DNA of 64,000 bases, taken from Zootoca vivipara. Lineage: Eukaryota. The notes under the pieces were generated by a model. It was not told the origin of the DNA. It did no database searches and was given only the letters and a program-made list of their open reading frames with translations. The DNA lies in assembly GCF_963506605.1 (NCBI RefSeq), contig NC_083283.1:20274001-20338000 (forward strand). The letters are read 5' to 3'. The number at the start of each line of letters is the position of its first letter. The stretch's first letter is position 1. Made by a program: the position numbers and the translations under genes. Below are positions 49,295 through 50,762 of the stretch, in pieces.

Positions 49295-50762
49295 CCGTGT
49301 TTCCCCTTTTTTAAGCCGTAGTCATAAAGTAAGCCATGGCAGGATTTTTAAGATTTTTAAAATATAAGACATACCCCGAAAATAAGACATAGGTCTACCT
49401 GCAGGGTCGGCGCCCAGCAGCGAAGGTGGGAACGGGGCCGAGGACGCCTCTGGCCAAAAGTTATGGGGGGGTGTCGAGAAGTTCCATTTGGCGGGGGGGG
49501 GAGTTGGAGGGAGGGAGGCACTGCTGACTGGGCTTGTTGCTTCTGTTTTCTTTTCACGTTGTTTGTTCCTGTAAAATGGCAACCCCTGGGCCAAAGCAAT
49601 TGATCCTCGCCTATGTTGCTTCCCAGGGTGGTGGGAGGGGGGAAAGAAAGAGGGCAAAGATGTCGGCGGGGAGAGAAAACGCGTGAGTCCTCTCCCTTTC
49701 TTTCCTGCTTAGCCAGCTTGTGGGCAGGCCGAAGCAATCGAGCCAACGTCTCTAATAACAGAAGCTGTTCTGTCATTAGAGACGTCGGCTCGATTGCTTC
49801 GGCCTGCCCACAAGCTGGCTAAGCAGGAAAGAAAGGGAGAGGACTCACGCGTTTTCTCTCCCCGCCGACATCTTTCCCCTCTTTCTTTCCCACCACCCTG
49901 GGAAGCTTCCAGGCTGCTTACCGTACTTGATCCGGCGGCCTGCCGGGTCAGCACTGATCAGCGCTGCACAGAGCACCAGATCGAGGATCCGGTCTGCAGA
50001 GTCAGCGCTCAGCAGCGCCGTGCTGGATTGAGGAGGCGATGCTCCGTGCGGCGTTGCTGGGCGCTAACTCTGCAGACCGGATCCTTGATCCGGTGCTCCG
50101 CGCGGCGCAGCAATAGCCAAGCGCAGCGCGCCGAGCCGGCCAGCACCCTCACCCTCGCCACTGCTGCGGGCACAGGCACGGGCATGTCCCCCACCGGCGC
50201 CAGCCTCAGCAGCAACGCCAGCAGCGATGCCTGCATGGTGCAGCTCAGCCCCACGGCAGCCCCTGCGCTCCCGCTCCAGCCACCTGCGTGAGCCATGCTC
50301 TACGGCCTCGGCCCCCCGCTCAGCACCGCCAGCAGGTCCACCGCAACGTCGGGGGAGGAGGGGAGGAGGGACTTTTCTGCCTATGCCATCCGTTCTCGGC
50401 TTGGTTTGCTTAGCGTCGCCTTTGTCATATGCCACCATTGTCGATGATGTCCTCCGGTTTCACAGAATTGTGGAATTGGAAGGGACCGCGAAGGCCCTGC
50501 TATGGAGGACTATTGTGCCTCCAACTCCCCCCTGCCAAATGGAACTTCCCGACACGCCCCCCTTAAACTTTGGTCAGAGGCGTCCTCCTTGCTGTGCACC
50601 CTGAGCTAGCGGGACCCAGCAGCAGCAATGCTGGCCGCGGTAAGAAGGGGTACTTACAGTAATATTTTTTTTAAAAAAAGACACCCCCCGAAAATAAGCC
50701 ATAGGCGTATTTTCTTGAGTAAAATTAATATAAGACGGTGTCTTAAAATGTGGGAAACACGG
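49295..50762. mobile_element. Tc2-like non-autonomous DNA transposon carrying GC-rich cargo (Pack-TIR-like), 1468 bp
   Basis: TA TSD (49293-49294, 50763-50764). TIRs CCGTGTTTCCC..TTTTAAG at both ends, and subterminal boxes shared with 5816-6050. No transposase ORF. The interior is CpG-rich with several inverted repeats. Confidence 0.88.
49618..49906. repeat. Long near-perfect palindrome (arms about 140 bp, 4-nt loop at 49764-49767)
   Basis: gcttcccagggtggtggga...taataacagaa | gctg | ttctgtcatta...tcccaccaccctgggaagc. The ORF track shows the same peptide on both strands. Confidence 0.95.

Follow-up and report, generated by a model that had tools for sequence, protein, structure and literature searches.

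The capture of gene fragments by cut-and-paste transposons, followed by their amplification, is a hallmark of plants. Vertebrate gene-capturing Helitrons reportedly show mosaic capture of gene starts. In rice, Pack-MULEs are described, in the available text of two reports, as thousands of non-autonomous elements that carry GC-rich host fragments and have been amplified by transposition (PMC5861414, PMC13317346). Among animals, the accessible part of a survey of 100 genomes gives 370 Pack-TIRs, of which four are multicopy (three copies for the example given) and none comes from its one lizard; these elements are reported as mostly single-copy and transposition-independent, and template switching of the FoSTeST type with short microhomology has been proposed for their capture (PMC8277862). 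A share of Pack-TIRs is transcribed or yields chimeric RNA, a feature that their definition does not require. The defining features of Passer (PS), a pogo family, are set out in the available sections of two other papers (PMC7386202, PMC9976928), and TC2 is also listed as a pogo group (PMC7325037). A search of the openly accessible literature returned no report of cargo-carrying pogo elements in reptiles; the family described below may be present in Repbase or Dfam as an unannotated consensus.

A polymorphic pogo element in an intron of ZFPM2

The window analyzed here, which is a stretch of 64,000 nucleotides of the Zootoca vivipara genome, harbors a non-autonomous DNA transposon of the pogo (DD35D) type, whose insertion is recent and polymorphic. 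This element of 1,468 bases (49295-50762) has a TA dinucleotide directly outside each end (49293-49294 and 50763-50764), and the CCGTGTTTCC termini that a first-pass annotation had placed at 49295 and 50762 are present. It thus combines the TIR ends and the target site duplication that characterize Pack-TIRs. The orthologous empty TA site, which the same annotation had proposed as a check, was found in DNA contigs of two of three same-species runs from two studies, the third run having no cover of the flank. In the empty allele, 49290 is joined to 50761, and the 1,470 bases skipped correspond to the element plus one TA; the insertion is therefore polymorphic. The left end (49295-49391, plus strand) consists of the TIR and of subterminal AAAATAAGACA repeats, and the right end with its TIR occupies 50656-50762 (plus strand); 29 and 27 of 30 TIR bases, respectively, are the same as those of the coding copy L159. 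Matches to the left-end pattern number 1,839 in the genome, compared to none for the control.

The description of a CpG-island-like interior in AT-rich surroundings was borne out, with a GC content of 0.61 and an observed/expected CpG ratio of 0.70 compared to 0.37/0.30 and 0.40/0.25 for the 5 kb on either side. As initially reported, the element encodes no transposase (none of its 27 stop-to-stop frames of at least 45 aa is transposase-like) and includes three inverted-repeat pairs: 49633-49763/49768-49898 (131 nt, 96% identity), 49961-50020/50049-50108 (87% identity) and 49440-49510/50518-50587. The folding of 49610-50120 gave a z of -31.6, none of 100 shuffles being equally good. The host gene is ZFPM2, located on the minus strand, three exons of which fall within the window (7097-6873, 5398-5174 and 3908-1395). 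The exons found on either side of the element lie 42 kb and about 72 kb away (the latter being the next upstream exon), so that its annotated intronic location holds. An intron of ZFPM2 also harbors, at 8153-8536 on the minus strand, an open fragment of a C2H2 zinc-finger array that is unrelated to ZFPM2 itself.

Whole-length matches to the interior were found in at least 22 places at 92-100% identity among the 40 scored of 383 candidates; these 40 also include a second subfamily, about 85% identical to the window interior and devoid of 82 bp of the first hairpin. In total, 35 copies (22 full-length and 13 further) share one interior at unlinked sites with different flanks, the pattern that defines multicopy Pack-TIRs. 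TA is present on both flanks of 26 of the 30 scorable copies, and five other copies are one or two bases away from the window copy. The 131-bp hairpin shows stepwise erosion among the subfamilies (L022, L024-L030, L062, L065, L074-L080), with losses of about 36, 82 and 226 bp, and the second hairpin has a loop whose orientation is opposite in different lineages. An 18-base joint, taken as a lead to an empty ancestor, gave six matches, which belong to another cargo-bearing subfamily.

A search with the DDE_1 profile gave 96 matches, including 13 with equal scores, eight of which were examined. Five of these coding copies (3.08-3.36 kb; three of them 99.9-100% identical) have the same first 21 bases (TIR) as the window element, and the ends of the remaining three resemble those of a 235-bp element also located in the window. 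Overall, the coding copies are 3.1-3.9 kb in size with an intact frame. Their transposase is encoded by a single frame of 431 aa with HTH_Tnp_Tc5 and DDE_1 domains and a DD35D signature (D174, D278, D314); BrkDBD was not detected at E 0.001, and a PDB search with this transposase gave no match. One frame of 400-500 aa, a size of 1.6-4.0 kb, a short TIR and a TA target, as expected of pogo and Passer elements, are all found. By these features, the family of ends appears to fit pogo DD35D elements of a Passer-like kind rather than a verified Tc2, the group to which it had been initially likened. Another pogo-like family is represented by a TA-flanked element of 562 bp with CCGTATTTTTCGCT ends (L010:3128-3689).

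Outside the TIR, identity between the ends of the window element and those of the coding copies is only 77-86%. Alignment to the autonomous copies L159, L156 and L162 is limited to these ends and, since the interior does not align, a deletion derivative of a coding parent was rejected. The three coding copies have transposase regions that are 89-95% identical, whereas their 5′ regions are unrelated to each other and all include GC-rich tandem modules; a turnover of promoters or introns by capture is possible in these three coding subfamilies. The 235-bp miniature element (5816-6050, plus strand), which belongs to a related pogo subfamily and lies in the intron of ZFPM2 that is bounded by exons 6873-7097 and 5174-5398, had been read as the "empty" sibling of the window element. 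Their ends are indeed related (82% identity over the left 97 bp and 86% over the right 90 bp), but the right end of the small element is 96% identical to that of L156, a member of another coding subfamily, and this small element has a large family of its own (1,283 candidates). It is therefore a cousin, from a related miniature family, and not the cargo-free form.

Host donors and shared modules of the interior

Identified blocks tile the element with 115 of its 1,468 bases uncovered. A short family module (49393-49419, plus strand), which also adjoins the left end in L114 and L263, elements devoid of the MMADHC block, is followed by a captured CpG island located near MMADHC. This block (49420-49762, plus strand) is 85% identical over 364 columns to C1:102321488-102321848. 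Inverted copies of parts of the same island are found at 49764-49906 (minus strand; donor 102321853-102321691), where the fold-back forms the 131-bp hairpin, and at 50518-50587 (minus strand), a remnant of a palindromic right half that is whole in L078, L079 and L081. A second family module (50588-50655, plus strand), a related motif of which adjoins the left end in L113, L216 and L236, precedes the right end.

There are no family ends within 40 kb of the MMADHC-island donor, and the continuation of this island is single-copy (the two candidates are the island itself and one match of 44 bp). The donor alleles are also found in a single-depth contig of 1,387 bp from another species, in whose run nothing covers the hairpin and TAL1 blocks. 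The five exons of MMADHC are located 7-13 kb from the island and are transcribed away from it, and the island lies 6.8 kb 5′ of the first exon that matches Pfam; its position suggests that the captured island is likely the MMADHC promoter or first exon. Near the island, the minus strand of C1:102334369-102338161 has an open frame of 1,264 residues resembling an LTR-retroelement polyprotein.

The block at 50108-50519 is 90% identical to C7:43071362-43071789, a single locus without transposon ends. All 36 candidates were scored and consist of 35 family copies and this one end-less locus, around which no family ends occur within 40 kb. The donor is a CpG island with the first coding exon of an intact three-exon TAL1 gene encoding an HLH domain; the protein is 95-99% identical to a Podarcis protein and the exon alone 95% to Podarcis proteins. 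The captured content comprises 228 bp of exon (50108-50335, plus strand), which is the 3′ half of this exon, followed by the splice donor at 50336 and 184 bp of intron (50336-50519, plus strand), with AG|GTCCAC in the element and AG|GTCCGC in the donor gene. The exon-like segment and the splice donor that had been noticed in the cargo are thus those of TAL1. The snippet at 50461-50496, which we take to be a CR1 tail, is real, but it arrived inside the captured intron and is not a separate piece of cargo. In the TAL1 intron, it belongs to a short repeat (L061:5185-5347) with a tRNA-Lys-like head and a CR1-like tail, between which the capture breakpoint is located; the tRNA match is sub-threshold and weak in Rfam (E 0.11), and ARAGORN found no tRNA at this breakpoint. 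The captured exon part 50235-50335 has an internal ATG at 50235 and, in the window copy, an in-frame TGA at 50289. According to the available text of one study, translation of the short isoform of human TAL1 starts within the corresponding exon (10.64898/2026.05.03.722504).

In all 35 copies, differences from the TAL1 donor affect 13-21% of the CpG sites compared to 2.7-5.1% of the non-CpG sites, i.e., about four-fold more. The CpG retention had been attributed to a young or unmethylated copy. Since CpG sites diverge about four times more than others, the CpG content is better explained by a young age than by an absence of methylation, and the divergence pattern appears as expected for young, methylated copies. 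Exon and intron diverge alike from the donor (about 5-9% and 4-8%, respectively), and the TAL1 frame is stopped in 18 of the 24 scored copies and open to the splice donor in the other six, so that there is no sign of coding constraint on this cargo. Given the exon positions and the minus-strand orientation of ZFPM2, the TAL1 piece is antisense to the host gene. Because of this orientation, of the distances of 42 kb and 72 kb to the exons and of the stop in the TAL1 frame, the window copy is probably neutral.

Overall, GC-rich host cargo with non-transposon donors, as had been proposed, was found for both the TAL1 and the MMADHC-island loci, which are single and end-less. The association of internal non-TE sequence with a parental copy devoid of TIR element that defines Pack-TIRs therefore exists for these two donors.

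The GC-rich nested hairpin located between the two captured pieces (49907-50108) has a different distribution. Helitrons have a 5′ TC, a 3′ hairpin followed by CTAG, an A-T target and no TIR, and these criteria were applied to the sites that carry this block. A 26-base pattern taken from it has 212 matches in the genome (control: 0). Among the 100 matches listed, 40 that had not been recognized as pogo copies were examined: none of them lies between pogo ends, one of the two Helitron-type end motifs is present in 35, and 21 show both motifs. They reveal a non-autonomous, CpG-rich and hairpin-laden family of Helitron type (L174-L213) of 0.4-1.3 kb, to whose copies the hairpin block is 92-93% identical. 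Modules of this family are common to at least two pogo subfamilies (window element, L064/L075, second element of L012). No end-less unique locus that could be a host donor was found among the 40 fetched of 212 matches, and a protein search with the open frame of the block gave 0 of 575 candidates. As diverged forms of the block also adjoin the left end in older, island-free pogo interiors (L114, L252, L263), a transfer from pogo to Helitron may have occurred, and either direction of exchange fits.

Capture in sister elements and coding copies

The first 30 exact left-end matches on C1, which are not a random sample, were examined over 1.5 kb per end (16 of the 30 elements ran beyond this length). 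They fall into 19 interior clusters, and 22 of them have a GC content of at least 0.58. Among 11 interior stretches queried, end-less donors were identified for seven, and amount to nine loci; the other four are the hairpin block, the L076 and L238 cargoes and the 5′ region of L159 (50 matches). The cargo of L244/L277-L278 derives from C13:13634772-13635319, which includes a myosin first exon, its splice donor and intron, and is present in 11 element copies (12 of 12 candidates scored); exons encoding a myosin head lie 35 kb downstream. This gene is presumably MYO1D, and LYPD6 is likewise a gene name that we presume. About 770 bp of the start region of IQSEC2 (L265/L302; C16:40149947) are carried in antisense by about 24 elements (27 of 27 candidates scored), the search having also given two further short end-less matches besides the donor. 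A PDB search named IQSEC2; such searches gave nothing for the myosin peptide or for the frame of the C2 island, another donor of sister cargo that is the one end-less locus among 30 checked. The donor of the L080 cargo, a C4 island (C4:83.68 Mb; 53 candidates), ends near an ATG and a splice donor. C11:62.24 Mb, C19:46.54 Mb and seven more loci considered as donors of this cargo are all elements with ends.

Coding copies also carry cargo. In L156 (C11:4642714-4646611), bases 651-1920 comprise three captured blocks ahead of the frame, whose end-less donors on C4, C11 and C1 are 96-97% identical to them (10 of 10 candidates scored); two of them are ordinary DNA. Two of these three blocks are found in L360/L361, and L155 has a different insert of 1.2 kb. 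No donor was found for the L076 cargo among the best 40 of 1,800 and 40 of 109 candidates scored, nor for the L238 cargo among 40 of 269. These 40 scored L238 copies are all 97-100% identical, with an interior of 1.3 kb and a GC content of 0.46-0.48, and this subfamily therefore appears very young. All six donors of non-coding elements pass the CpG-island thresholds compared to 3 of 376 background tiles, a difference to be read in light of the choice of GC-rich cargo for the queries. The earlier claim of a capture of fragments of GC-rich loci is supported, and capture extends beyond CpG islands, two of the nine donors being ordinary DNA.

Origin of the patchwork and comparison with known systems

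The ends, TA sites, copy number, donors and empty allele, the intact coding relatives, whose TIRs are nearly identical, and the patchwork of sister and coding copies were all observed. From these, we infer with good confidence that the interior was assembled through template switching while the element was being copied or repaired, and that the element was then likely mobilized by the transposase of intact relatives. The polymerase would leave the element at GC-rich repeats and hairpins, copy 0.2-0.8 kb of either an unlinked locus or the element's own sequence (the latter yielding fold-backs and inverted halves) by means of one to three bases of microhomology, and then return to the element; chimeras keeping both ends would be amplified by cut-and-paste. 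In the window element, the left end with the hairpin module would have come first, followed by capture of the MMADHC island with its fold-back, by an inverted copy of the left half, by the replacement of most of this copy by TAL1 and, lastly, by amplification.

Several observations are consistent with this scheme. Captures start where hairpins or tandem modules end: TAL1 starts exactly at the end of a hairpin arm, and the fold-back point lies inside the donor. The junctions show GCG at the left edge of the island, CC at the right edge of TAL1 and, elsewhere, one to three shared or a few untemplated bases, although microhomologies of one to three bases carry little weight when taken alone. Stepwise forms exist, with the hairpin module but no island in L114, L252 and L263, and the palindromic right half without TAL1 in L078, L079 and L081. 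Elements of the L078 type are not direct ancestors since their left half is devoid of about 226 bp kept in the window copy.

Cargo could also be acquired by aberrant excision of two neighboring elements flanking host DNA, as in Pack-CACTA elements, with loss of the inner ends. The family is abundant enough (1,839 ends), with a second element within 2 kb in L012, L017 and L087. However, no family ends exist within 40 kb of the TAL1 or MMADHC-island donors, even if this model itself erases inner ends according to the available text of PMC13317346. Moreover, the boundary of the TAL1 piece falls within a coding exon, few of the boundaries coincide with TA, L156 joins its C11 and C1 donors directly through one shared base without any transposon remnant, and fold-backs and inverted halves would still require template switching. 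Such an excision is thus unlikely. Even less probable is a patching of the excision gap by nascent transcripts or cDNA. Seven of the nine donors are located in or at CpG islands, several of them at first exons with splice donors, but this share is inflated by the choice of GC-rich cargo. In addition, the intron is kept past the splice donor for TAL1 and myosin, both orientations and fold-backs are found, two donors are ordinary AT-richer DNA and no spliced junction was seen. Lastly, an interior left over from a coding parent or known repeats, with "donors" that would be decayed copies, has almost nothing in its favor besides about 300 bp of family or Helitron modules without host donor (49907-50108, 50588-50655 and 49393-49419), and is refuted over 1,000 of the 1,270 bases that make up the interior, as only the ends align to L159, L156 and L162, TAL1 is an intact conserved gene, and the MMADHC island continues as single-copy sequence and is single-depth in the other species without cover of the hairpin and TAL1.

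We lean towards considering this family as a vertebrate counterpart of Pack-MULEs. It would be an active pogo family of a lacertid lizard whose coding and non-coding members capture serially, most of its approximately 1,800 copies carrying host DNA from promoters, first exons or elsewhere (TAL1, IQSEC2, a myosin, MMADHC and probably dozens of others). Modules would be swapped among members and with a Helitron, and new polymorphic CpG islands would be seeded genome-wide. One amniote family would thus capture serially and at scale, with donors that can be traced, intermediates that represent successive steps, insertions that are polymorphic and copies whose transposase is intact. The way in which unlinked DNA enters TIR elements is a long-open question that becomes testable by junction catalogues and cell culture and, if our reading is true, the available intact transposase would make this capture observable in cells. 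Vectors of Passer type might likewise pick up host DNA. Many apparent CpG islands and exon-like pieces of lacertid genomes would be mobile copies, which matters for annotation and for methylation studies, and small-RNA cross-talk with genes such as TAL1 is possible.

Like capturing Helitrons, the window element is a mosaic of gene starts and has one block in common with a Helitron family; unlike them, it has TIRs, TA duplications and cut-and-paste movement. Its coding relatives resemble Passer by their DD35D signature, single frame of 431 aa, size of 3.1-3.9 kb, short TIRs, TA targets and HTH_Tnp_Tc5 and DDE_1 domains, but BrkDBD was not detected here, and the available text of PMC7386202 and PMC9976928 does not mention capture of host DNA by Passer. 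As in rice Pack-MULEs, GC-rich host fragments are found in amplified non-autonomous elements; in contrast to them, the present family belongs to the pogo superfamily and has TA targets, short TIRs and a vertebrate host. With animal Pack-TIRs, it shares a TIR element around host DNA, a parent copy devoid of TIR, multicopy members far from this parent and a GC-rich cargo. It differs from them by one cargo in 35 copies and others in 11, 24 and about 50, by several donors per element and by coding copies that carry cargo. Compared to known Pack-TIRs, the scale, the serial capture, the presence of cargo in coding copies, the exchange with a Helitron and the recent activity are notable.
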